This document shows positions 51,448 through 61,709 of a DNA stretch of 64,000 bases, piece by piece. Position 1 is the stretch's first letter, and each line of letters opens with the position of its first letter. The stretch is taken from assembly GCA_035539095.1 (NCBI GenBank), contig DATLJE010000009.1:265071-329070 (forward strand), read 5' to 3'. A program made the position numbers and the translations under genes. This DNA is from Luteimonas sp. Lineage in GTDB: Bacteria > Pseudomonadota > Gammaproteobacteria > Xanthomonadales > Xanthomonadaceae. Below the pieces are notes generated by a model. The model did no database searches, was not told the origin of the DNA, and saw nothing but the letters and a program-made list of their open reading frames with translations.

Positions 51448-52331
51448 AACAGCTGATCTTCATCCACGGCCGCTCGCAGCAGGAGAAGGACGCCGTCAAG
51501 CTCAAGCAGGAATGGATCCAGGCATGGAAGAAGGGCCTGGCCAAAGGTGGCCTGCCGATGCCGATCGACGAGGCGCACATCCGCTTCCCGTACTACGGCG
51601 ACACGCTCGCCCAGATGGTCGGCGGCGCCAGCGCGGACGACGCGGCGAAGATCATCGTGCGCGGCGCGGAGCAGAACCCGGCCGCCGAGCAGTTCCTCTC
51701 CATGCTGCTGCAGCAGTACATCGACGGCGCGGGGATCACCGACGACGAGATCGAGGCGCAACTGCGCGCCGAGGCGCTCGTGCTCGAGCGCGGGCCGCAG
51801 AACTGGGGCTGGGTGCAGGCGGTGCTGCGCGCCATCGACAGGCGCACGCCCGGTGGCGGCGCGTTGATCGCGCTGGTCACCAACGACGTGCACCAGTACC
51901 TGGTCAACCTGGACCTGCGCAGGCACATCGAGGACGGCGTGCTCAAGGCCATGGACCCGGACAGCGAGAACGTGGTCGTCTCGCATTCCCTCGGCACCGT
52001 GGTCGCCTACACCGCGCTGCGCCGGCTGGCGGCGGAAGGCCAGGCGTGGCGCGTGCCGTTGCTGGTCACCCTGGGTTCGCCGCTGGGCATCCGCGCGATC
52101 CGCGGCAAGCTGCGCCCCATCGGCCACCCGGCCTGCGTGACGCGCTGGTTCAACGCCTACGATCCCAACGACGTGGTGTCGCTCAACCCGCTGGACGCAA
52201 AGAACTTCGCCATCACCCCTGCGATCGAGAACAAGGGCGACGTGGACAACGGGACGGACAACCAGCACGGCATCGTCGGCTATCTCGACGACGCGGTGGT
52301 CGCGCGAAGGATCCACGAGGCGCTTGCGTAG
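51444..52331 (+). CDS. alpha/beta hydrolase (lipase/esterase-like), function unknown
   Basis: Its ATG overlaps the upstream stop (ATGA). LIFIHGR, nucleophile elbow SHSLG, later YDPNDVV and QHG. Confidence 0.75.
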   Translation: MKQLIFIHGRSQQEKDAVKLKQEWIQAWKKGLAKGGLPMPIDEAHIRFPYYGDTLAQMVGGASADDAAKIIVRGAEQNPAAEQFLSMLLQQYIDGAGITDDEIEAQLRAEALVLERGPQNWGWVQAVLRAIDRRTPGGGALIALVTNDVHQYLVNLDLRRHIEDGVLKAMDPDSENVVVSHSLGTVVAYTALRRLAAEGQAWRVPLLVTLGSPLGIRAIRGKLRPIGHPACVTRWFNAYDPNDVVSLNPLDAKNFAITPAIENKGDVDNGTDNQHGIVGYLDDAVVARRIHEALA

Positions 52332-52462
52332 GGGTGGGCGCCGGAAACGCTGCAGGCCGTCCATGCAGGTCCTGCATCCGGTTGTGCCGCATCCGGTGCG
52401 CAGGTCCGCGCATCGTGGCGGGCCCGATGTCGGCAACCGGCTGATTGCGCTGCGGATTCTGG

Positions 52463-52480
52463 TGGCTATGGGTGGAATCG
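52463..52480. repeat. distal att repeat of the tRNA-Met island (tggctatgggtggaatcg)
   Basis: 17/18 identical to the tRNA 3' end at 60604-60621. A 10-bp partial re-duplication (ggtggctatg) lies at 52483-52492. Confidence 0.8.
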
Positions 52481-52549
52481 CGGTGGCTATGCTTCCGCCC
52501 CGTAGCGCCCTAGTCGTTTCAATGGCTTGCGGACCCGCCGGAGCCCGCA

Positions 52550-52581
52550 CTGTAGCAAACGCTGTAGCACATGCTGTAGCG
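52550..52581 (+). repeat. three CTGTAGC(A/G) units phased at 12 bp (candidate integrase arm-type sites, left arm)
   Basis: Units begin at 52550, 52562 and 52574. The same order (A, A, G) occurs at 60509-60540. Confidence 0.65.
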
Positions 52582-52856
52582 AATGGTGGGCCGCTTTCGT
52601 CCCCTCGCGGCAACGGTTCCCCCGGGGCATATTTCGCGGTGGTCCCCTCGCGGCAACCTATCGGGCCCCTTCATGGCATACCTTGGGTGTCGACCCGCTC
52701 CGGGCCGACAACGGAACCTGCCATGCGAATCTCCCTCGCTCTGGAATCCCTGCTCCCGCAGGAACGCGCCTCGCGCTTCACCGTCACCCGCGAACGCTAC
52801 GGCCGGCACGTCGCCGTGGTCGCCTTCGGTCGTCGCTTGCTGGTCGACTTGATCCG

Positions 52857-53372
52857 CTAGCGCATTCGCTCGATCACCCAAGCGCGTTGGTCCTGCGTCC
52901 ACGCTTCGGCGGGTTTGTAGTCGGCGGCGCGCTCGGGTGGTCTCTCGTGCCGGAGCTGTAGCGCGAGCTGTAGCATCGGCCGGTACTCGGTCACGAACTG
53001 GGCCGACTCCGCGCACCCTGCCGTGGCCTCTCGCTCGATCCGCTCCCACTGGTCCAGCAGCCGGGGCCGGTCGGGGCTAAGCCCTCTCAGGTCGGCGTCA
53101 TTGTCCGGGGGCGGTATCCATCCCCAGCGGGACCCGCCGCTCCGGTCCGTGTGCTTGCCCTCGACCTCAGCCGCTAGCCTCTCGATTCCCTGCGCGCAGC
53201 TCTTGAGCCGCGACCGTAGCGCATAGCGCGCTCGCTGCTCGGCCGTCTGGGGCTTCCTGCGGGCCCTGTCGCGGGCGCTGCGGTCCATCTTGGCCAGCGC
53301 CTGGGCCAGCGCCTCGGCCACCTCGGGGCAGCCTTCGGTGGCCCCTCCGGGGGCATCCCGGGGGTTTGTCAT
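52857..53372 (-). CDS. hypothetical protein (island)
   Basis: ATG at 53372 with GTGAGGA upstream, within ORF 52857..53414. No recognisable motifs. Confidence 0.55.
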   Translation of the reverse strand: MTNPRDAPGGATEGCPEVAEALAQALAKMDRSARDRARRKPQTAEQRARYALRSRLKSCAQGIERLAAEVEGKHTDRSGGSRWGWIPPPDNDADLRGLSPDRPRLLDQWERIEREATAGCAESAQFVTEYRPMLQLALQLRHERPPERAADYKPAEAWTQDQRAWVIERMR

Positions 53373-53465
53373 GGCTAAATCCTCACTGAATGAAATGTTA
53401 AATAGTGGCCTCAACCGGCCACACTAGCGCGCCTCTGTTCCGGCCGGGGCTTAACAATTCCGCGG

Positions 53466-54326
53466 CTACCATTCGCCCCTGTCGATCGCCTCAGCCAACC
53501 TCCGGTCCACCTCAGGGACCCCCGCGGCTCCTTCTTCGGGCTCCGCCTCGACGTCCGCAAGCAACCCCCGAAGTGCCACCGCGACAAGCTCCCGCGGGAG
53601 GTCCTTTGCGTACCGCGCCACCTGTCGCTGCAACTTCCCAATTCGCCAATCCTCGTACTGGCCCGGAGTCATTTCATCGCGCAGCCCGTTGCGGATCGTG
53701 TGCCGCACGTAGCGCCACTGAGGGAACCCCGAAGCGCCATCGCGGTGGTCCTTCGGGTAGCGTTCGGGGTCCACCTCAGGGAGCCGTGCAAGCATCCTCG
53801 CCACGGTGTCCCGACTAATCCCGAACTCAAGCGCGATGCTTCGCTCCGAACTCCCCGGGGGCAGCTTCAGTGATCCCCCGGCGGTGAGTCCGGCTAGGTG
53901 CTGCCACGCCTGTTCCCTGAGCTGGTCGCGGTGCATCGGCAGCTTCACCCCGTCGAGATTCACCAACCGGGAAAGCCTTCCCGCTGTCCGCCAATCCATC
54001 ACTCGAACGCGAGCCGGCAGCCGTGCGCGTCCTGCGCGTTGGTACGCCCTGAGCCGGTGGTGTCCGTCGGTGACGAATAGCTCTCCGGCGATACTCGCCA
54101 CAAGCAACGGCTCAAGCTCTGCCGCGGCACTGAGCCTCAGCACGCCGGTCATGCGCTCGATATGTTCCTCGCTCTGCGCTTCCTGCCTCGCCTGATCCCG
54201 GAGTGACAGCAGCGCCATGTTCCGCGGCTGAAGCGCGGGGTTCTGCCTGACCTCCTTTACCTCGATCTGCCGCGGTTCGGTCTCGCGCCATTCTTCAAGC
54301 CTTGCGGCTAGTGTCTTTGTCTGCAC
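53466..54326 (-). CDS. ParB/Srx-like nuclease N-terminal domain protein with HTH
   Basis: VTDGHHRLRAY (DGHHR motif of the ParB N-terminal domain) and an HTH-like SIALEFGISRDTVARML. GTG start. Confidence 0.75.
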   Translation of the reverse strand: MQTKTLAARLEEWRETEPRQIEVKEVRQNPALQPRNMALLSLRDQARQEAQSEEHIERMTGVLRLSAAAELEPLLVASIAGELFVTDGHHRLRAYQRAGRARLPARVRVMDWRTAGRLSRLVNLDGVKLPMHRDQLREQAWQHLAGLTAGGSLKLPPGSSERSIALEFGISRDTVARMLARLPEVDPERYPKDHRDGASGFPQWRYVRHTIRNGLRDEMTPGQYEDWRIGKLQRQVARYAKDLPRELVAVALRGLLADVEAEPEEGAAGVPEVDRRLAEAIDRGEW

Positions 54327-54338
54327 TGAAGGTGGCCC

Positions 54339-54518
54339 CTAGTGGTCGGAGGGTGGCGGCACCTGCGCCAGCAACTCGGCTAGCACCTCGCTGTTCGTCA
54401 TTGGCCTACCGCGCTGCGTCTCCATCTGGCGCTGGTACGCCTTGAGCTTATCGAACGCGGGCACCTCGAACGAAATGGTGCGATAGACCAACGTCTCTAC
54501 CCTGCGCTCAGCGTCCAT
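54339..54518 (-). CDS. 59-aa protein, possible ribbon-helix-helix DNA binder (below ORF-track cutoff)
   Basis: Hand-translated: MDAERRVETLVYRTISFEVPAFDKLKAYQRQMETQRGRPMTNSEVLAELLAQVPPPSDH. GGAGGAG lies 7 nt upstream. Confidence 0.55.
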   Translation of the reverse strand: MDAERRVETLVYRTISFEVPAFDKLKAYQRQMETQRGRPMTNSEVLAELLAQVPPPSDH

Positions 54519-54684
54519 CGGTGAACTCCTCCCCGCTCGCTACTCGGCGCAGCCGCTCGGCCAGCCGGCGGGCAATGATGCCTTCCAGCACGGCATTGTC
54601 TGGAGTGTCCGCGCGGTAGGGATACCATCCGTCGATTAGATGCGCGGCGGCTTCTACGCCTGCGCGTTCGTGGTCCTGAATCAT
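54508..54684 (-). CDS. 58-aa hypothetical protein (below ORF-track cutoff)
   Basis: Hand-translated: MIQDHERAGVEAAAHLIDGWYPYRADTPDNAVLEGIIARRLAERLRRVASGEEFTDGR. ATGA overlap with the HNH gene stop. Its 3' end overlaps the next start by 11 nt. Confidence 0.5.
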   Translation of the reverse strand: MIQDHERAGVEAAAHLIDGWYPYRADTPDNAVLEGIIARRLAERLRRVASGEEFTDGR

Positions 54685-55202
54685 GTTGATGCCTCTTCGA
54701 TGTAGCGGAGTACCTGGGCCACTTCGTCGTCGGTGACGCCACGCGCGGTGGTCTCGCCGTAGTCCATGCCTTCAAGTCGCGCCCTGAGCCGGTCGGGGCT
54801 GTGATCGCGCTTGATGCGGTTAGCGCGGAGGGAGATAACCTGCACGTTCCCCGGGACATAGCCCGCGGCCGGGTCGATGCGGTCAAAGCTCGGCGATGCG
54901 TCGGTGTGCTCTCCGCTGTAGTCGAGCACCAGTCCTAACACTGGGCACACCTTCGGGGCACCCCCGGGGCACGCCTCGGCGAGCGTGATCGCAAACGGGA
55001 TGCCTTCGCGCTTTGCGTCGGCCTTGCGGGTCCTGAGGTTCAACCTCAAGCGGCCTTCTGGTGTCGCTGCGGTGGCCGCATACCAACGCCGCCACTGTGC
55101 GCGCCGCTTATCCGGATTCGCTGCCTTCCATCGTCGCCGCCGCTGCCGTGCCGCCTCTTTCTGCTCTGGCGTCATCCGCGCCCATCGCTCAGCGGTCGGC
55201 AT
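54681..55202 (-). CDS. HNH-type endonuclease-like protein
   Basis: ATG at 55202. CPVLG...SFDRIDPAAGYVPGNVQVISLRANRIK resembles phage HNH nucleases. Confidence 0.65.
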   Translation of the reverse strand: MPTAERWARMTPEQKEAARQRRRRWKAANPDKRRAQWRRWYAATAATPEGRLRLNLRTRKADAKREGIPFAITLAEACPGGAPKVCPVLGLVLDYSGEHTDASPSFDRIDPAAGYVPGNVQVISLRANRIKRDHSPDRLRARLEGMDYGETTARGVTDDEVAQVLRYIEEAST

Positions 55203-55440
55203 CGCTCGCCTCCAGCGCAGCGCGCGCCTCCGCTGTGGTGGTCCGGAACAGCCCGGACAGCATCCCGGCATTGACGAAAGCCGGGAGGTCTCCGTCTCCA
55301 TCCTTCGCAGCTTCAAGAAACCGCCGCATCCGTTCCCGGCGGTCGGCCTTGGCTGCATCCGCTCCGCGCCCTACTCGGGGGAGGGTATTGTCGAAGGCGG
55401 CGGCTAGCGCGGCCTCCATTCTCTGGCGCATTACGCTCAT
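55189..55440 (-). CDS. hypothetical protein (island)
   Basis: 83-aa ORF. Its end overlaps the HNH start by 14 nt. Confidence 0.5.
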   Translation of the reverse strand: MSVMRQRMEAALAAAFDNTLPRVGRGADAAKADRRERMRRFLEAAKDGDGDLPAFVNAGMLSGLFRTTTAEARAALEASDADR

Positions 55441-55603
55441 TCTGTTTCTACCTCGATTGATTGATTGATCTGAAACAGCGAAGCCCGCCGCTTCGGCGCG
55501 TTCTCCTACTGCCCCGGGACCTTGATCCCTGAGGGTTCGGGCGCGCTTCCACGGCGGGCCTTGCTGCCGGCGGAGTGCTACCGCCTAAGGTGTTCGGCCC
55601 GGA

Positions 55604-56158
55604 TTAGCCCGCGCTGCGTCGCTGCGCCTTCATCCGCTCGGCCAGTGCGCGCGCGTCATCTTCAAGGACCAATTCCTGTGCTCGCGCTTCAACGCGGGCC
55701 TTGTGCTGGCGCTCGGCGTCCAGCTTCTCCAGCTCGGTTGGTACGTGATCGGCTCGCCACTGCGCAGCAGCCGCGACCATCTTCCGCACGCCCGGGAGCT
55801 GTACCGCCTCCTTGAAATAGAGCGCCTTCTCCCGCGTAGTGCGCGCATCGCCCTGATACCGGTAAACCGGTTCGCCCGTTTGCGCGTCATAGCGGATCAC
55901 CTCCGCCAGCTCTGCGCGCATCCGCGCCACTTCCCGCTCAAGGTCCGCGACCTGCGCCGGGTCCGCGGCGGCTGCGCTGAAGTACGGCTCAGCGCCCGGA
56001 GGCCCCAGCGTGGAACTCTTCTGGATCGCCAGCCGGCCGCCCATGAGGTAACGCTTGTCCAGCGATTCCGGGGCATTCCCGCTCCAGCGGTTGGCCTCCA
56101 GCAAGCCATCATCGAGCGCCGCCTGACTCGCGGGGCTCAGCTTTACATCTTCGTTCAT
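55604..56158 (-). CDS. hypothetical protein (island)
   Basis: ATG at 56158 (the ORF track starts at a TTG at 56182). Coiled-coil-like C-terminus. Confidence 0.55.
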   Translation of the reverse strand: MNEDVKLSPASQAALDDGLLEANRWSGNAPESLDKRYLMGGRLAIQKSSTLGPPGAEPYFSAAAADPAQVADLEREVARMRAELAEVIRYDAQTGEPVYRYQGDARTTREKALYFKEAVQLPGVRKMVAAAAQWRADHVPTELEKLDAERQHKARVEARAQELVLEDDARALAERMKAQRRSAG

Positions 56159-56244
56159 TCGTCTTTTCCGTATCGCAGGCAAAGAGAACCCATCACCGCG
56201 CGGCCTGCGCGCGCAGCGTGGGGTGGTGTTGATTGGTGGTGTCT

Positions 56245-56874
56245 CTACTCGGCCGGCGCGAACGGCACGGCCAAGCCTTCGCGGATCGTGGCCGCGGTTC
56301 TTTCTGGGCCTAGCACCTCGTCGCGGATCGCCTTCGCTGCCACCAAGGGCAACGCTCCAAGGGACTGGCGAACATGCTCTCCCAGCGCCCGCGCATGGCT
56401 GGCAGTGGTGCGGGTCTGTTCCTTCCTGCCCGAAGGCGCAACGCTCTTCACGGGTCGGGGTGCGCAGCGCAGCAGCGCCCGCCCCATATTCGTGTCGAAA
56501 ACGCGGTCGTCATTCAACGCGCGCGGAGAAAGGTCTTCTTGCAGCCAAAGCGCAATCGCCGCGGCCAGCATCGCCCGCGGGTCCGTCCCATTCCTGAGCC
56601 GGGCCATTTCCCCCGCGAGGAAGCGCGCCCCTTCCTGCTCAGACACAAGTTCCCGCAGCCAATCCACGGCGGCCACCACGGACGGGTGCCCCGCGTTCCT
56701 GTCGACCCACTCCCGGGCAATCTCCCGGTACGGCTTCAGCTCTTGCTTGCGGATGATTCTCCCGGTGGCCCCGCCGGTGGTCCGGGCGCGCTCGAAGTGG
56801 TGCTCGCAATACCGGCTCCAGCGCCGCGCCCTGCGATTGCAGCCGTCGACGCAGCAGCGTTCGTATTCGGTCAA
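56245..56874 (-). CDS. hypothetical protein with N-terminal Cys/His cluster (CCVDGC...YCEHH)
   Basis: TTG start preceded by AGAGGA. 209 aa. Confidence 0.55.
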   Translation of the reverse strand: MTEYERCCVDGCNRRARRWSRYCEHHFERARTTGGATGRIIRKQELKPYREIAREWVDRNAGHPSVVAAVDWLRELVSEQEGARFLAGEMARLRNGTDPRAMLAAAIALWLQEDLSPRALNDDRVFDTNMGRALLRCAPRPVKSVAPSGRKEQTRTTASHARALGEHVRQSLGALPLVAAKAIRDEVLGPERTAATIREGLAVPFAPAE

Positions 56875-57430
56875 GTGTGTTTCCTCTGGTCATGGTGAAG
56901 GGGCCCCCGCAGTCCACTGCGGTTGCCTCTGTCGGGGTCAAAAAAGGGAGCCCGTCGAACGCACGGGCAGCGCCCGGGAACGGGTGGTGTTCTTCTATTA
57001 GGGACGCAATCGCTTAGCCCGCTCTACGGGCCGGTTACGGCTGCCGCTTTGTTAGTACGCAACCTGACATTCGCAGGGTCCCCTCGGGTGGTCCTGAGGT
57101 GCCCTTGAGGTGCCCATGTAGTGGCCCCTTGGTGTATGGGCTCCGCCCCTTGTGCTAGTAGTCATAGTGACATTTGGTTGCCCCGCGGGGACCTGCCGCC
57201 TGAGCCCTACCCAGCGGCCCTACAGGGGCCACCTGAGCGCCCCGCCGCCGCCTCCGTCCCCGGCCCGGGGCGGCCCGAATCAGCCAGTGCCGGCGGTCTC
57301 CCGGGCTGTCTGCCGGGGCGGTCGGTCGGCTGGTCTCTATCGAGTAGTCGCCCAATCGGTTAACCCGCTCTAGGGGCCGTGGAACATTTTCGTGGAACAG
57401 CGCCATACTGGGGGCCGAACGGCCGCCCGC

Positions 57431-58108
57431 CTAAGCCTGCGCCTCCCGGGCCAGCAGCCCCCGCACGCTCGACTTGTGCCACCCCTTCCCCTGTAGCGTC
57501 CGCACGCCCCGGGCGTTCAATGCCTGCGCCAACGCGCCCAGGCTCTCCACGCCCTGCGCCCGAAGCTCCGCGACGATCGGCAGGACCTTGGCAGCGTGGG
57601 CCCCGGCCTTGGCACTGGCCGCGGCTGTAGCGGCCCCTGTGCCCTTCCCAGCCCTGCGGATCGCCTCGGCCCCGTTGGGGTTCCCCAGCTTCACCCCGCG
57701 CCGCTTAGCGGCTGCCAGCGCCTCCCGGGTGCGCCGGCTGATAGCCTCGCGTTCCCGCTGCGCCATGATCGCCATGATCCCTACCGTGGTTTCGTCCGCG
57801 TTGGGCATGTCGGCCGCGACGAACTTCACCCCGCCGTTTTGCAGCCTCAGCAGGAACTCCGCGTTGCGGCTGAGCCGGTCCAGCTTGGCAATGACCAACG
57901 TCGCCCCGGTGACGTCCGCGAGCTGTAGCGCCTTCGCCAGCTCCGGGCGGTCGTTGTCCTTCCCGCTCTCCACCTCGGTAAACGCGGCCGTGATCGTCCC
58001 CCGCACGCTCTGGGCGTACTGGTCGACCGCGTGCCGCTGCGCTTCCAACCCCAGCCCGGAGCGGCCCTGGCGGTCCGTGGAAACGCGGTAGTAGGCGACT
58101 AGCTTCAT
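57431..58108 (-). CDS. serine recombinase (resolvase/invertase family)
   Basis: MKLVAYYRVSTDRQ catalytic-Ser motif, LVIAKLDRLSRN, C-terminal HTH-like region. Confidence 0.9.
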   Translation of the reverse strand: MKLVAYYRVSTDRQGRSGLGLEAQRHAVDQYAQSVRGTITAAFTEVESGKDNDRPELAKALQLADVTGATLVIAKLDRLSRNAEFLLRLQNGGVKFVAADMPNADETTVGIMAIMAQREREAISRRTREALAAAKRRGVKLGNPNGAEAIRRAGKGTGAATAAASAKAGAHAAKVLPIVAELRAQGVESLGALAQALNARGVRTLQGKGWHKSSVRGLLAREAQA

Positions 58109-58566
58109 GGGGTGGCACTCCATCTAACGGGCGTTAGACGGATTTGTACGCCCCGGGTGCGCGCCCTGTCAAGCGGGCGGCTGCTCTGGGCCTAGGGCGT
58201 CCAGTGGGCCGGGGCGGCTGCTCTGGCCTAGTACCAGCACAACCGGCGAAGGGGTCACCGAATCCACTACGTCCTAAGGCGCGGCGCGGGCTGCCCGGGT
58301 GGCGTGTGCCGAAGCGTGCCCGGGGTGGTGTCTCTGGCTCTCTAGAGCGGAACCGGAGGGTGCCCCCGCGGTGGCATCGCCGGGTTGTCCCCGGTCCTCG
58401 CGCGGTCCTCCCTAGGTGCGCCGCGGTGGCCTGCGCGGGCCATTCGGCGGCCACCCCCTACGGGGGAAACGGGCCACGGCCGCCCGATCGAGGGGCGCTC
58501 GATGGTTTGAGCAATTTTCGGCACCTTGCGGCAGGCGCTACAGTCGCAAGCGCGAAGGGGGCACCA

Positions 58567-59109
58567 ATGCGAATCCGCCAAAAGCCGGAAGGCGTCGAAG
58601 ACTACCAACGGGGCATGAAACAGGCGCTCCGCCTACTGAAAGAGATTCCTTCGGACGCCTTCAAGTGGACCGGGGCGGTGGCCGCTATCGCGGCAATCCA
58701 TGTCGCCGACGAGCGCACCCATTCGGCATGGCTCCAATGGATGGGTTACGCCTTGTCCATCCTGTTGGTCGCTTGGATGCAATATTCCTTCTATCGTCTC
58801 GGCTTGACCAAGCACCCGGAACGGCGCGAGCGGGACGGGGCAGTAGTGATCGACTTTCGCTTGTGGAAGTTGGCCCTCGGCGCCGTCCTTTGCGTGTTGT
58901 CGTACTGGTTTGCCTTCTATCTACCGAAGGTGATTGCGGGGAGTGACTTGCTGCAAACAGTCGCCACTACACCGGCAACCGTAGCTGCCCCAGCGCCCCG
59001 GCCAGTGCCGCGAGGTCCGTCGTCTTCCCATACCGCCCAACCGGCATCGAATCCAACTCGTGCCCCAGCAGGTCCGCAATCTGGTACTCCGGCACCCCCG
59101 CATCCTTAA
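58567..59109 (+). CDS. small membrane protein (three predicted TM helices) with Pro-rich tail, island cargo
   Basis: AAGGGGG Shine-Dalgarno sequence and ATG at 58567. A/T-richer codons than the surroundings. There is no stop before 59109, so it overlaps the integrase 3' end by 143 nt. Confidence 0.5.
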   Translation: MRIRQKPEGVEDYQRGMKQALRLLKEIPSDAFKWTGAVAAIAAIHVADERTHSAWLQWMGYALSILLVAWMQYSFYRLGLTKHPERRERDGAVVIDFRLWKLALGAVLCVLSYWFAFYLPKVIAGSDLLQTVATTPATVAAPAPRPVPRGPSSSHTAQPASNPTRAPAGPQSGTPAPPHP

Positions 59110-60517
59110 GCCTGGCCGATACCGTGTGCCGGAAGCTATGCGCCGCCGTCTTCTTCGGATCGGTGACGCCTGCATCCCGCAGTCGCCGCGCTAGCAGCTT
59201 CGATAGCTTGTCCACTGCGCCGCGCTTCGGGTTGTCGGTGGTGCGCCACTGCGCATCGAACAGGTGGCCCGCAGGTGCGCCCTCAGTCCACTTCAACAGC
59301 CCCAGCTCGACCAACCGCGGATGCACGGGCACAAGCCGGCGGCTCCCCGGGGTCTTGAGCTGCTTCCCTTCGGTGTCGTCGTTCACGTCGATGACCCAAG
59401 CCTCTCCCTCGCGGCGAATGTCCGCCGTCGTGAGCTGCGCCGCTTCGCCAAGCCGCAGCCCTGAGTACGCCATGATCCGGGGAAGCCAACGCAATTCTGG
59501 CCGCTTCGGCTCTTGGTCGAGCTTGGCAAAGTAGGTGCGCAAGTCGTCGTCGGTGAAGGGCCGCCGGTCATCGCGTGCGCGTCGTTCCTTCACGTCTCGC
59601 AACACTTCGGCGGGATTCTTCGGAATCGTGTCATGCTCGGTCGCCCACGCGAACAGCGAGCGCGTTAGCTGTTGGTACTTGTTGACGCTGCGCGGTTCCA
59701 GCCGGGGAACGCTCGGGTCCCCTTCGGTGGCCTTCAGGACCTCCCGCGGTGTCTTCCCCGGGAACTTCTTCCCCATGTTCGCCGGTAGCTGCGTGATCGC
59801 GTGGCCTAGCTGGCGCATGTCTTCCTTCGTGACGTCGCCAATCTGCGGATCGCCCAGCAGCTCCGCGACGGTTTGCAGAATGGTCCGGTGGAGGTGTTCT
59901 GTCTTCGGTGACCATTTCCGCAGCGAAACGCGCTCGTCTCCGTAGAGCCGCGCCACCTCCGAAACCCGCGGGGTTTCCTTCGGTGCCTCCGCAGTGGCCC
60001 CGCGGTGTTCCGTGGGCCTGCGCAGCGGATTGCCGGCAAGCGCCTTTAGCTCTGCCGTCACGGCTTCAAGCTTCGCCTCAATCAAGCGGCGGGCCAGCTT
60101 GCGGCGGGTGGTGTCTTCGCCTTCGAGTAGCAGCGTGCGCGCCAGCTCCGCGAACTCGCCTAGCTCGGCATTAGCGAGTAGGCCGCTCAGCCGGTGCGCT
60201 TCGTCGTTCAAGTCGAAGCGGTGCGCGTCCAGCCCGGGGCCTTCCCACTCAAGGGCTAGCCGGTCTTCGATCTCGTCGAAGCTCGCCGCAAGGTAGCGGC
60301 GGGTGATCTGGTCTAGCTGGTCGGCGGTCATTGGCCGGCGTCGCACCCCTGCGAACAATGTCCCGAGGTGAGTCTCCCACAACGCCAAGCGGCGGGCCGC
60401 CTCGCGGGGGTCCGCGGTGGATAGGGAGCGGGTGATTTCGGATCGGCCCAAGGTGTCCCGAAGGTCGGCCGGGACTGCGATCCGCGAAGCGTAGGAACTG
60501 CCGCGTCTCTGTAGCAT
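58967..60517 (-). CDS. tyrosine recombinase / phage-type integrase
   Basis: C-terminal catalytic region HSFRHTVSARL...LLGHE...GRYGK. Adjacent to the tRNA. ATG at 60517 is preferred over the TTG at 60586. Confidence 0.9.
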   Translation of the reverse strand: MLQRRGSSYASRIAVPADLRDTLGRSEITRSLSTADPREAARRLALWETHLGTLFAGVRRRPMTADQLDQITRRYLAASFDEIEDRLALEWEGPGLDAHRFDLNDEAHRLSGLLANAELGEFAELARTLLLEGEDTTRRKLARRLIEAKLEAVTAELKALAGNPLRRPTEHRGATAEAPKETPRVSEVARLYGDERVSLRKWSPKTEHLHRTILQTVAELLGDPQIGDVTKEDMRQLGHAITQLPANMGKKFPGKTPREVLKATEGDPSVPRLEPRSVNKYQQLTRSLFAWATEHDTIPKNPAEVLRDVKERRARDDRRPFTDDDLRTYFAKLDQEPKRPELRWLPRIMAYSGLRLGEAAQLTTADIRREGEAWVIDVNDDTEGKQLKTPGSRRLVPVHPRLVELGLLKWTEGAPAGHLFDAQWRTTDNPKRGAVDKLSKLLARRLRDAGVTDPKKTAAHSFRHTVSARLKDAGVPEYQIADLLGHELDSMPVGRYGKTTDLAALAGALGQLRLPV

Positions 60518-60540
60518 GGTCTGTAGCACTCCCTGTAGCG
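60509..60540 (+). repeat. three CTGTAGC(A/G) units phased at 12 bp (candidate arm-type sites, integrase-proximal)
   Basis: Units begin at 60509, 60521 and 60533. They overlap the integrase start region. Confidence 0.65.
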
Positions 60541-60603
60541 CGGGGGCTAGGACCACTGAAGCGACGTGTTCGCCCTGCGTGTTCAAGGGCTTGCAGAATG
60601 GTA

Positions 60604-60677
60604 TGGCTATGGGTGGACTCGAACCACCGACCCCAGCATTATGAGTGCTGTGCTCTAACCGGCTGAGCTACATAGCC
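60604..60677 (-). tRNA. tRNA-Met (CAT), elongator type
   Basis: The minus strand reads GGCTATGTAGCTCAGCCGGTTAGAGCACAGCACTCATAATGCTGGGGTCGGTGGTTCGAGTCCACCCATAGCCA. Cloverleaf fold, G1-C72 pair, close to E. coli elongator tRNA-Met. Confidence 0.9.
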
Positions 60678-60811
60678 AAGGGGCGCTTCCCGCGCAGGGA
60701 AGCCGCGAATTATTCCCGGATCGGGCCCCCGCCGTCAATTCACGCCCCGGTCGCTTGTCGGCCCGGCGCCGCCGTGGCAGAGTCGATGGCAGTGAATTCG
60801 GAGTCCGCATC

Positions 60812-61378
60812 GTGATCGATCCGGACGGTTACCGGCCCAACGTCGGCATCGTGCTGATGCACCCCGACGGTCGCGTCTTCTGGGCGCGGCGCGTGCGCCG
60901 CGATGGCTGGCAGTTCCCGCAGGGCGGGATGAACACCGACGAGACGCCGCTCGAGGCGATGTATCGCGAGCTGCGGGAGGAAACCGGGCTGCTGCCCGGC
61001 CACGTCGACGTGCTGGGGGTCACTCCCGGGTGGCTGCGCTACCGGCTGCCGCAGCGGGCGATCCGCCGCCACGACAGGCTGGTGTGCATCGGCCAGAAGC
61101 AGGTCTGGTTCCTGCTGCGGTTCGCCGGGCAGGAGAGCGACCTGCGCCTGGACCTGACCGACAAGCCGGAGTTCGACCACTGGCGCTGGGTCGACTTCTG
61201 GTACCCGCTGGAGCACGTGGTCACGTTCAAGCGCGGGGTCTACGCCAGCGCCCTGCGCCATCTCGCCCCGTTCGCGCGCCAGATCGCCGGCCTGCAGGCG
61301 ATCCCGGACGCCTGCCAGGAGGCTCGCCAGCGGATCCCGGTCCGGTCGCGCCCGGGGCAGCGCAGCCAGCGGGGCTGA
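60812..61378 (+). CDS. rppH: RNA pyrophosphohydrolase (Nudix)
   Basis: GTG at 60812 ([15 protein letters not shown]). Nudix box [23 protein letters not shown]. Confidence 0.9.
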
Positions 61379-61418
61379 GCGCCGGACGGCTCGCCGGCCG
61401 GGGCGCGCGCCGCTGTTC

Positions 61419-61439
61419 ATGATTGACAATCATTCTCAT
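61419..61439. promoter_or_regulatory. Fur box candidate upstream of bfd
   Basis: atgattgacaatcattctcat resembles the GATAATGATAATCATTATC consensus. Confidence 0.6.
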
Positions 61440-61484
61440 TCGCGCGGACAATGGCGCCGTTCCCGCAGCCGTGGCCCGAAGTCC

Positions 61485-61709
61485 ATGTACGTGTGTGTCT
61501 GCAATGGCGTGACCGATCGTGACATCCGCCAGGGGGCCCAGGCCGGCTGCGGCAGCATGGCCGAGTTGACCATGCGCACCGGCTGCGGCGCGTGCTGCGG
61601 CAGTTGCGTCGAGATGGCCACCCGGCTGCTCGAGGAGGCGCGCGCGCAGTCCCAACCCGCCTGCGGCGACAACGTGGTCGCCTTCCCGCGCATCCCTCAC
61701 GCGGCCTGA
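61485..61709 (+). CDS. bfd: bacterioferritin-associated ferredoxin
   Basis: MYVCVCNGVTDRDI...GCGACCGSC [2Fe-2S] Cys pattern. Confidence 0.9.
   Translation: MYVCVCNGVTDRDIRQGAQAGCGSMAELTMRTGCGACCGSCVEMATRLLEEARAQSQPACGDNVVAFPRIPHAA

Follow-up and report, generated by a model that had tools for sequence, protein, structure and literature searches.

Which protein recognizes the CTGTAGC heptads that stand in 12-bp phased triplets at both ends of a mobile island in Luteimonas sp., and what does this arrangement mean for the integrase gene that the island carries? The island lies in a 64,000-nt stretch of contig DATLJE010000009.1 (hereafter the window), and all coordinates are positions in that stretch. 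Lambda-type tyrosine integrases bind arrays of arm-type sites flanking the core, and the first-pass annotation had read the heptads as such sites or, alternatively, as excisionase sites.

Phased heptads at the ends of a tRNA-Met island

[quoted passage not shown] The same 14-bp core bounds related islands of 7.3–18 kb. Directly inside the far end, the second GGTGGCTATG copy may serve as an accessory site or as one of core type; the related island G008 retains the block CATAGCCACCGCG-N-TTCCACCCATAGCCACC, and G063 has it in nearly the same form (GATAGCCACC...). No third att remnant bounding the neighbouring caspase-hydrolase module was found within the window.

Table 1. Coordinates of the island features in the window
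Feature	Position	Strand	Remarks
Far-end att core, TGGCTATGGGTGGA	52463..52476		Displaced copy of the tRNA-Met 3' end; identical to 60604-60617
Second GGTGGCTATG copy	52483..52492		Directly inside the island far end
Far-arm (P') triplet	52550..52580	-	Heptads 52550-56, 52562-68, 52574-80; GCTACAG on the integrase strand
Two 23-nt direct repeats	52592-52614, 52635-52657		Outside the far-arm triplet; 87% identity
Internal phased doublet	52956..52974	-	Inside a 185-aa ORF (52857-53414, - strand)
Four single copies	57491..58543	+ (57491, 57625, 57923); - (58537)	Three of four inside the serine recombinase gene
Tyrosine integrase (int)	58967..60517	-	516 aa; DUF6538 (aa 2-60) and Phage_integrase catalytic domain (aa 322-496)
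DUF6538 N-terminal domain coding region, proposed arm-binding domain	60338..60517	-	Pfam E = 1.3e-17
Integrase-proximal (P) arm triplet	60509..60539	-	Heptads 60509-15, 60521-27, 60533-39
Short inverted repeat (hairpin)	60572..60590	-	Between core and P array; -7.9 kcal/mol, z = -1.2
tRNA-Met (CAT) gene	60603..60678	-	3' end 60604-60617 is the tRNA-side att core
Promoter-like site of tRNA-Met	60709..60738	-	TTGACG-18-AATAAT; sigma-70-like match

Both triplets lie inside the island in the same orientation, outside the 14-bp identity between attP and attB, and flank the core on both sides, the nearest heptad being 73 bp from it in the far arm and 64 bp on the integrase side. The excised circle would read three GCTACAG sites 12 bp apart, 73 bp, the 14-bp core, 64 bp, three further heptads and int, with all six heptads pointing one way within ~213 bp around the junction. 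Within the arm arrays the spacers are dissimilar, and the far-arm triplet is non-coding. By comparison, the heptad at 60509-15 overlaps the int start codon (ATG CTA CAG, encoding M-L-Q), in agreement with the earlier proposal that the right-hand array covers the ATG at 60517.

The heptads had been placed by eye, and a full count bore out all of the placements. The plus-strand CTGTAGC copies at 52550, 52562 and 52574 and at 60509, 60521 and 60533 are all exact, as are the doublet at 52956 and 52968 and the single copies at 57491, 57625 and 57923; an inverted copy reported near 58543 occupies 58537-58543. At least 12 copies had been claimed for the island, and exactly 12 were counted, but the single copy noticed in the rest of the window became three (20468, 35112 and 41502). 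A 16-bp repeat described in the left arm (52599-52614 and 52642-52657) was confirmed and forms part of a longer, 23-nt repeat with 87% identity; one copy of the 23-nt repeat is kept in G008, and the repeat is missing from more distant relatives.

The window contains 15 CTGTAGC copies versus 2.76 ± 1.76 in shuffled sequences, none of which (0 of 100) reaches 15. Across the genome (3,657,176 bp) the heptad occurs 180 times, with 12 copies in the island, where ~0.4 are expected, and at most four in any other 8-kb window. Same-strand pairs at 12 bp number five genome-wide, all in the island, against ~0.004 expected by arithmetic from the genome counts, and no pairs were found genome-wide at other spacings of 7–30 bp except the implied 24. 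The genome-wide count proposed in the first-pass annotation therefore shows the motif to be island-specific and its phased pairs to occur nowhere else in the genome. The clustering of the heptads is real and far beyond chance.

Conservation of the arrays and covariation with the integrase

We compared the island with 12 related elements whose integrases are 46–76% identical. On the integrase side, the heptads occupy the same 12-bp grid in all 12, while the spacers vary, some spacer positions carrying only 0.2–0.4 bits in the alignment. In every relative the int start codon falls within the last heptad. This third heptad also encodes protein, with an invariant Leu2, so that selection on the protein may account for some of its conservation. 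Far ends were located for eight elements, seven of which carry one to three GCTACA(N) sites 69–105 bp from the core, and the eighth (G127) is degenerate. Full far-arm triplets are present in the window, G008 and L041, with a grid of 105/93/81 in the window versus 104/92/80 in L041 and 93/81/69 in G008; G377, G032, G293 and G063 have one or two far-arm sites at matching positions. Alignment of the att arms of related islands, as the earlier annotation had suggested, thus reveals arrays kept in position, phase and orientation.

The integrase gene is the sole gene common to all related islands. G008, with full triplets in both of its arms, lacks the serine recombinase. The small ORFs occur in the window only, and tblastn detected none of them in any related island that has kept the arrays. 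Several relatives of the island that occupy the same hotspot carry defence genes, including a SIR2_2 gene beside a DUF87/HerA-type gene, restriction-modification genes and GmrSD.

Furthermore, DUF6538 integrases that are 25–34% identical and associated with other tRNA genes have GGTATCG, GGACACA or TGGTCAC doublets, again spaced at exactly 12 bp and ending 2–11 bp before the integrase start codons. Three genomes with GGTATCG and one with GGACACA have a second array, located ~60–80 bp inward of the far att repeat. The heptad sequence therefore covaries with the integrase clade. One genome, G047, contains two islands with different heptads, indicating that the heptads are not host-factor sites.

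The DUF6538 domain and competing explanations

The ATG at 60517 is the conserved start of int because it opens the DUF6538 domain (residues 2–60) common to full-length homologues. The database entry for the integrase of this genome has 454 aa, is 100% identical over 88% of the query and gives no DUF6538 match, and about one third of the listed integrase homologues are likewise ~60 residues shorter and have no such match. This points to a recurrent annotation problem, in which integrase entries are shortened by ~60 residues and DUF6538 is lost.

In the AlphaFold2 model, residues 1–70 (mean pLDDT 88.5) are predicted with confidence to adopt a compact sheet-plus-helix fold of strand, strand, short helix, strand and long helix, an order that we take to resemble the fold of known arm-binding domains. 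A Pfam search of the N-terminal domain returned only DUF6538 even at E = 10, hhalign of DUF6538 against an alignment of 25 Arm-DNA-bind_3 domains from relatives gave a probability of 0.3% (E = 0.18), and Foldseek against the PDB gave nothing below E = 1. No significant link of DUF6538 to a known arm-binding domain was obtained by Pfam, hhalign or Foldseek. Weak matches in BFVD include three annotated phage integrases (E 0.3–1.3), two of them with probabilities of 0.97 and 0.85. The closest solved catalytic domain is that of Tn1549 Int (6EN0; E = 0.002), a relative of Tn916 Int. A full-text search for the domain name and accession found no papers on DUF6538 (PF20172).

The island-specific motif, the matching distances to the core, the conservation, the sharing of int alone and the covariation with the integrase clade all support the arm-type sites proposed by the first-pass annotation. 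Based on these observations, the repeats are very likely arm-type sites of the integrase attachment site, bound by the N-terminal DUF6538 domain. It is also fairly likely that DUF6538 defines a hitherto unassigned class of integrase arm-binding domain, with a clade-specific heptad (GCTACAG, GGTATCG, GGACACA and TGGTCAC having been seen with DUF6538 integrases) in a fixed 12-bp register in both arms. The central and catalytic domains of the integrase would bind and cut the core, while the extra 60-residue DUF6538 domain would bind the heptads, so that integrase subunits would bridge arms and core into a recombination complex. The fixed 12-bp register would place neighbouring N-terminal domains side by side.

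With the start codon of int inside the last heptad and the two other heptads occupying the 24 bp before it, bound integrase should also block int expression. Autoregulation of int through the P array is thus plausible, and the anatomy that fits it, an array over the start codon and 24 bp upstream, is found in every relative. The stretch between the tRNA and int yielded no sigma-70-like promoter, the only match upstream of int being the promoter-like site of tRNA-Met. Hairpins of differing sequence occupy the same place between core and array in most relatives, with z ≤ -2 in five of ten single-sequence folds, and RNAalifold yielded no shared consensus structure for them.

Alternatively, the heptads could be sites of an excisionase (directionality factor) or of another small DNA-binding protein encoded by the island. 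Direct short repeats in helical register, as seen here, are typical of excisionase and Cox-type proteins, and the island holds several small unannotated ORFs, an example candidate being a 59-aa ORF at 54339-54518 that we take to be ribbon-helix-helix-like. However, no match to the Xis, AlpA or Cox families was detected among the island proteins in Pfam, PHROGs or NCBIfam, and the small ORFs do not accompany the arrays into any related island. Directionality factors usually occupy one arm, unlike the arrays here, which stand in both arms at matching distances, and covariation of the motif with the integrase clade also speaks against such a factor. With no excisionase-like gene, no shared accessory gene and sites in both arms, this second proposal of the first-pass annotation is disfavoured, and we consider it unlikely.

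That the integrase-side array serves only in the transcription of int, as an operator or promoter element bound by integrase or another regulator, and takes no part in recombination agrees with its position over the start codon in all relatives, but this leaves unexplained the matching, conserved far-arm array ~8 kb away at an equivalent distance from the core, as well as the second arrays near the far att repeats of the GGTATCG and GGACACA clades. An operator function alone is therefore quite unlikely.

The six direct repeats around the circle junction are superficially iteron-like, and the heptads could be iterons of an origin from which the excised circle replicates, or else be bound by a host protein. 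Iterons are usually 17–22 bp, whereas each repeat here has a 7-bp core within a 12-bp unit; the islands have no replication initiator gene in common, and no Rep initiator family was matched in this one in Pfam, PHROGs or NCBIfam. In addition, no other phased array exists in the genome, and the differing heptads of the two G047 islands argue against a host protein, making this explanation very improbable.

Finally, the pattern could be due to chance or be an artefact of composition or of coding sequence, for instance a tandem repeat of 12 bp within a gene. This explanation has a negligible likelihood and is effectively refuted for the two arm arrays by their dissimilar spacers, the non-coding far-arm triplet, the excess of phased pairs and the conservation of the arrays across 12 elements, although such patterns do arise elsewhere: in viral contigs the triple pattern can come from (Ala-Thr-x-x)n coding repeats, and a scan of these contigs gave at least 120 loci, of which those inspected lay in unrelated viruses and consisted of coding sequence repeated in tandem every 12 or 6 bp, which made the scan uninformative. 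Codon usage is also in keeping with an artefact, in that CTA is common in the island genes (14% of Leu codons); the argument that CTA in the heptads, as a rare codon, reveals selection at the DNA level was therefore dropped.

The artefact is the best reading only for the internal doublet. Its units, GAGCTGTAGCGC and GAGCTGTAGCAT, are identical at 10 of 12 positions including the spacer and encode LQLA-LQLR, so it is probably a 12-bp coding tandem repeat. In the G008 homologue the doublet positions read, by inspection, CTCTAGG and TCGCAGC, and the doublet sites are therefore not conserved. The four single copies are probably non-functional; of these, 57491 and 57923 were checked, and six recombinase homologues lack them at the corresponding codons. 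The island interior is enriched, with six copies (doublet and singles) versus 0.64 expected, but the checked copies are unconserved and the doublet resembles a coding tandem repeat, and internal copies as extra sites were rejected. The inclusion of the internal copies in the arm system by the first-pass annotation is thus unsupported.

Comparison with known integrases

The arm-site mechanism as such is textbook knowledge and would hold no surprise for a specialist. What the arm-type reading of the heptads would add is a testable function, arm-site binding, for a Pfam domain of unknown function, together with a rule for finding island ends and attP arms: heptads 12 bp apart, ~60–105 bp inside the att repeats and abutting the int start. 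If DUF6538 is indeed an arm-binding class of this kind, sequence alone could serve to predict both the attP arms and the control of the integrase in many uncharacterised islands at tRNA genes, several of them with defence cargo, and in the GCTACAG clade the binding site would double as the codons for the first residues of the very domain that binds it (Met-Leu-Gln).

The present system shares with lambda Int an integrase with an extra N-terminal domain and short repeats in both arms (P1, P2 and P'1–P'3 in lambda) that lie tens of bp away from the core and do not occur in attB. The lambda P'1–P'3 sites are tandem and about one helical turn apart, like the tandem sites here. By comparison, the lambda P sites are inverted relative to P' and spread, whereas all six heptads here have the same orientation in regular 12-bp triplets; in sequence and profile comparisons the N-terminal domain here, DUF6538, has no detectable resemblance to known families of arm-binding domains, and neither an excisionase nor IHF sites were identified in this island. 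The P4/SXT/HPI-type integrases (Arm-DNA-bind_3, DUF4102) are likewise island integrases that target tRNA genes, and arm binding is assigned to their N-terminal domain. They are found alongside DUF6538 integrases in the same bacterial genera, but their domain belongs to a different family, as the hhalign result above indicates.

For the proposed control of int, the closest parallel is KplE1 IntS at argW, where int is negatively autoregulated via arm-type sites overlapping its promoter; autoregulation was predicted for ~61% of tRNA-associated integrase genes, with a mean tRNA–int spacer of 208–228 bp in the predicted cases (Panis et al. 2010, PMC2951348). Both systems have the tRNA and int in the same orientation with an att arm between them (both on the minus strand here, with the array in the spacer), and arm-type sites, candidate ones here, over the int expression signals. 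The spacer here is only 85 bp, and the last site contains the start codon itself; moreover, neither a promoter between tRNA and int nor a directionality factor was identified here.

The N-terminal domain of Tn916 Int is a small sheet-plus-helix domain that binds the directly repeated DR2 arm sites. The DUF6538 domain gave no sequence or Foldseek match, and the sequence and spacing of the sites differ. What the two systems have in common is a small sheet-plus-helix N-terminal domain and direct repeats in the arms, to which binding is predicted in the present system.

Heptads and island ends

The tRNA-Met 3' end TGGCTATGGGTGGA recurs exactly at 52463–52476, and the island therefore spans 52463–60617. 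Both CTGTAGC triplets lie inside it, with the heptad closest to the core 64 bp away on the integrase side and 73 bp away on the far side. All six arm heptads share one orientation, reading GCTACAG on the integrase strand, and in the excised circle a stretch of about 213 bp would include the core and the six sites on its two sides. The integrase start codon is overlapped by the heptad at 60509–60515 (ATG CTA CAG, Met-Leu-Gln), and the frame upstream of this start (60586 to 60509, minus strand) reads ...ALQGVLQTMLQ, in which site 2 gives an in-frame GTG. The repeats are read in frame because their 12-bp unit corresponds to four codons. The three units at the related locus L036 each read GTG-CTA-CA(G/A), also in frame, and a gene caller placed the protein start further upstream.

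Coordinates of the island features in the window
Feature	Position	Strand	Source or detail
tRNA-Met (CAT)	60603–60678	−	ARAGORN
att core, tRNA 3' end	60604–60617		exact copy at far end
Integrase gene (int)	58967–60517	−	start 85 bp from tRNA, same direction as tRNA; Pfam DUF6538 (residues 2–60) and Phage_integrase (residues 322–496)
CTGTAGC triplet, far side	52550, 52562, 52574	+	exact search
CTGTAGC triplet, integrase side	60509, 60521, 60533	+	exact search
CTGTAGC doublet	52956, 52968		exact search
CTGTAGC single copies	57491, 57625, 57923		exact search
CTGTAGC inverted copy	58537–58543		exact search

The window contains 15 CTGTAGC copies, as compared with 2.76 ± 1.76 in shuffles. A whole-genome count (3.66 Mb, 71% G+C) gave 180 copies, 12 of which fall within the 8,155-bp island (~0.4 expected), and any other 8-kb stretch has at most four. 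Same-strand pairs at 12 bp occur five times genome-wide, all within the island, against ~0.004 expected by chance as estimated from the genome-wide counts. Equal frequency elsewhere in the genome, which would have counted against the reading in the first-pass annotation, is thus not observed. Reading of 52000–61500 and exact search found all its heptad coordinates to be exact; the single copy that it reported in the window outside the island becomes three (20468, 35112 and 41502).

The island interior holds six copies versus 0.64 expected. The 12-mers of the doublet are identical at 10 of 12 positions, spacer included, and encode LQLA-LQLR, and the homologue in the related genome G008 reads without the motif at this position; we take them to be a tandem repeat of the coding sequence rather than a part of the arm-site system. 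The copies at 57491 and 57923 in the recombinase gene, the two checked, are missing at the homologous codons of six homologues. Other islands have 0–2 interior copies, and that at locus L041 has only its six arm sites. The interior (52620–60480) is 66.7% G+C, as compared with 70.8% in the window left of the island (1–52462), and CTA is unusually common in island genes (14% of Leu codons), often in GCTAGC-like contexts.

Further elements were observed at the island ends. After integration the tRNA-Met ends ...CATAGCCA-TACC (60600–60617) and so has no encoded CCA, and the displaced core copy at the far end (52460–52476) retains ...CATAGCCACCAG; the arrangement is identical in G008, and other relatives have CCA at both ends. 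A second GGTGGCTATG copy, 6 bp inside the far core (52483–52492), is a possible core-type or accessory site; G008 keeps the block CATAGCCACCGCG-N-TTCCACCCATAGCCACC, and genome G063 has it almost unchanged (GATAGCCACC...). Directly outside the far-arm triplet, two 23-nt direct repeats (87% identical, 52592–52657) precede a 45-aa ORF (52723–52860, plus strand); one copy is kept, in G008 only. The stretch from the core to the integrase-side array contains a short inverted repeat (60572–60590), 3–15 nt beyond the tRNA 3' end, with counterparts of different sequence at the same place in five related loci (L023, L024, L026, L034 and L040). Half of 10 folds reached z ≤ −2, and no alignment-level consensus for a core-to-array hairpin was found among the relatives; the inverted repeat may serve as a terminator or processing hairpin of the tRNA, or as a site for a protein. 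A block like AGCGTTTCC(G), at a constant place 25–45 bp core-side of the integrase-side array in most relatives and weaker in the window (about 60541–60570), may be a promoter element or accessory-protein site.

Arrays in related and distant elements

The arrays, which the first-pass annotation had put forward as arm-type or excisionase sites, are conserved in related islands. Whole-genome and collection searches recovered integrases 46–76% identical to that of the island, including those of Luteimonas lutimaris, Cognatiluteimonas profundi, Novilysobacter erysipheiresistens and metagenome contigs. When aligned on the start codon, all 12 elements show GCTACAG-type heptads in the same 12-bp phase, each with an ATG or GTG start within the last heptad, and some spacer positions between heptads carry only 0.2–0.4 bits. 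G377 and L040 have a degenerate middle site and a first site displaced by 1 nt; the middle site is GCTGCAG in G127 and GCTACAT in L039, and sites 1 and 2 of C. profundi are TTACAG. At another tRNA, an integrase 48% identical (L037) has two GCTACAC copies 23 bp apart, the second lying within codons 2–4.

Far ends were located through the second core copy in eight elements, the window included, and the seven fully delimited islands measure 7.3–18 kb. GCTACA(N) sites lie 105, 93 and 81 bp from the core in the window, 104, 92 and 80 bp in L041, 93, 81 and 69 bp in G008, 102 and 79 bp in G377, 101 and 78 bp in G032, 93 bp in G293 and 70 bp in G063; the array of G127 is degenerate. The G032 element (L022, 19380–19700; protein named Luteimonas yindakuii) retains its triplet on the integrase side, as well as a far arm and its core, but has lost the tRNA and core beside int; its sequence diverges about 45 bp from the array, and it therefore looks rearranged or trapped.

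In the same genera and in neighbouring ones, distant DUF6538-type integrases (25–34% identical) adjoin other tRNA genes and have doublets of their own, spaced exactly 12 bp and ending 2–11 bp before the start codon: GGTATCG at L005, L006, L008 and L009, GGACACA at L007 and TGGTCAC at L017. Whole-genome pattern search revealed a second GGTATCG array on the same contig and strand, 20–32 kb off, in three of four genomes, each ~60 bp before a 17–22-bp repeat of the tRNA 3' end; a TGGTCAC far arm was not found by this search. G036 has only three exact GGACACA doublets: two form integrase-proximal arrays, and the third, a far-arm array, lies ~60 bp from an 18-bp repeat of the tRNA end. This genome has two DUF6538 integrase genes, L055 (G036:C26) and L054 (G036:C8), both with the doublet. 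The islands of genome G047 differ in their heptad, two kinds being present, and this speaks against a host factor as their reader.

The integrase as candidate reader of the heptads

Comparison of every island ORF with eight related islands (tblastn) showed the integrase to be the only ORF common to all eight. The serine recombinase is missing in G008, where each of the two arms has a full triplet. Only G008 and G063 have matches to the ParB-like ORF and to the ORFs of 185 and 192 aa, and none of the eight matches the ORFs of 83, 58 and 59 aa. No excisionase-type family was detected with Pfam, PHROGs or NCBIfam. The cargo of the other islands is very different. Four loci at the same tRNA-Met/NUDIX hotspot with the same integrase family (L035, L039, L040 and L041) carry varied, partly defence-type cargo: a SIR2_2 gene beside a DUF87/HerA-type gene, an NspV-family gene beside a DNA methylase, type I restriction-modification genes with GmrSD and a STAND-like NTPase, and a large methylase beside a ResIII helicase.

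AlphaFold2 modelled integrase residues 1–70 with a mean pLDDT of 88.5 (30 homologues in the alignment), in the order strand 2–5, strand 8–14, helix 17–23, strand 27–31 and helix 37–60, a sheet-plus-helix order that may resemble the arm-binding domains of lambda and Tn916. Foldseek returned no PDB match to this domain below E = 1. BFVD matches were weak, three annotated phage integrases being among them, two at probability 0.97 and 0.85 (E 0.3–1). Pfam gave no family besides DUF6538 in the N-terminal domain, and hhalign against 25 Arm-DNA-bind_3 domains gave a probability of 0.3%. Among solved structures Tn1549 Int is the nearest, and its match is confined to the catalytic half of the integrase. 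That DUF6538 may work like an arm-binding domain therefore rests on the genomic evidence, not on demonstrated homology. With regard to 60332–60517 (minus strand), the database entry that corresponds to the integrase of this genome (P0001) has 454 aa, is 100% identical to the 516-aa reading over 88% of its length and has no DUF6538 hit; judged by its length, Met63 is its probable start. Of the homologues among the matches listed, about a third are similarly short and also lack the hit.

Apart from the tRNA's own, no sigma-70-like promoter was found upstream of int. The array spans the start codon and 24 bp upstream in all relatives and ends just before the start in the other clades; therefore, any int promoter or leader must overlap the sites. 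IntS of KplE1 represses its own promoter via arm-type sites, and the same repression was predicted for most integrase genes that lie next to a tRNA gene in this orientation (Panis et al., PMC2951348). We consider the chances that int is autoregulated through the array to be roughly even.

Taken together, the heptad arrays are predicted, with good confidence, to be arm-type sites. This kind of system is already well known, to which the present analysis contributes a simple 12-bp rule for the integrase family and, for DUF6538, a probable function.
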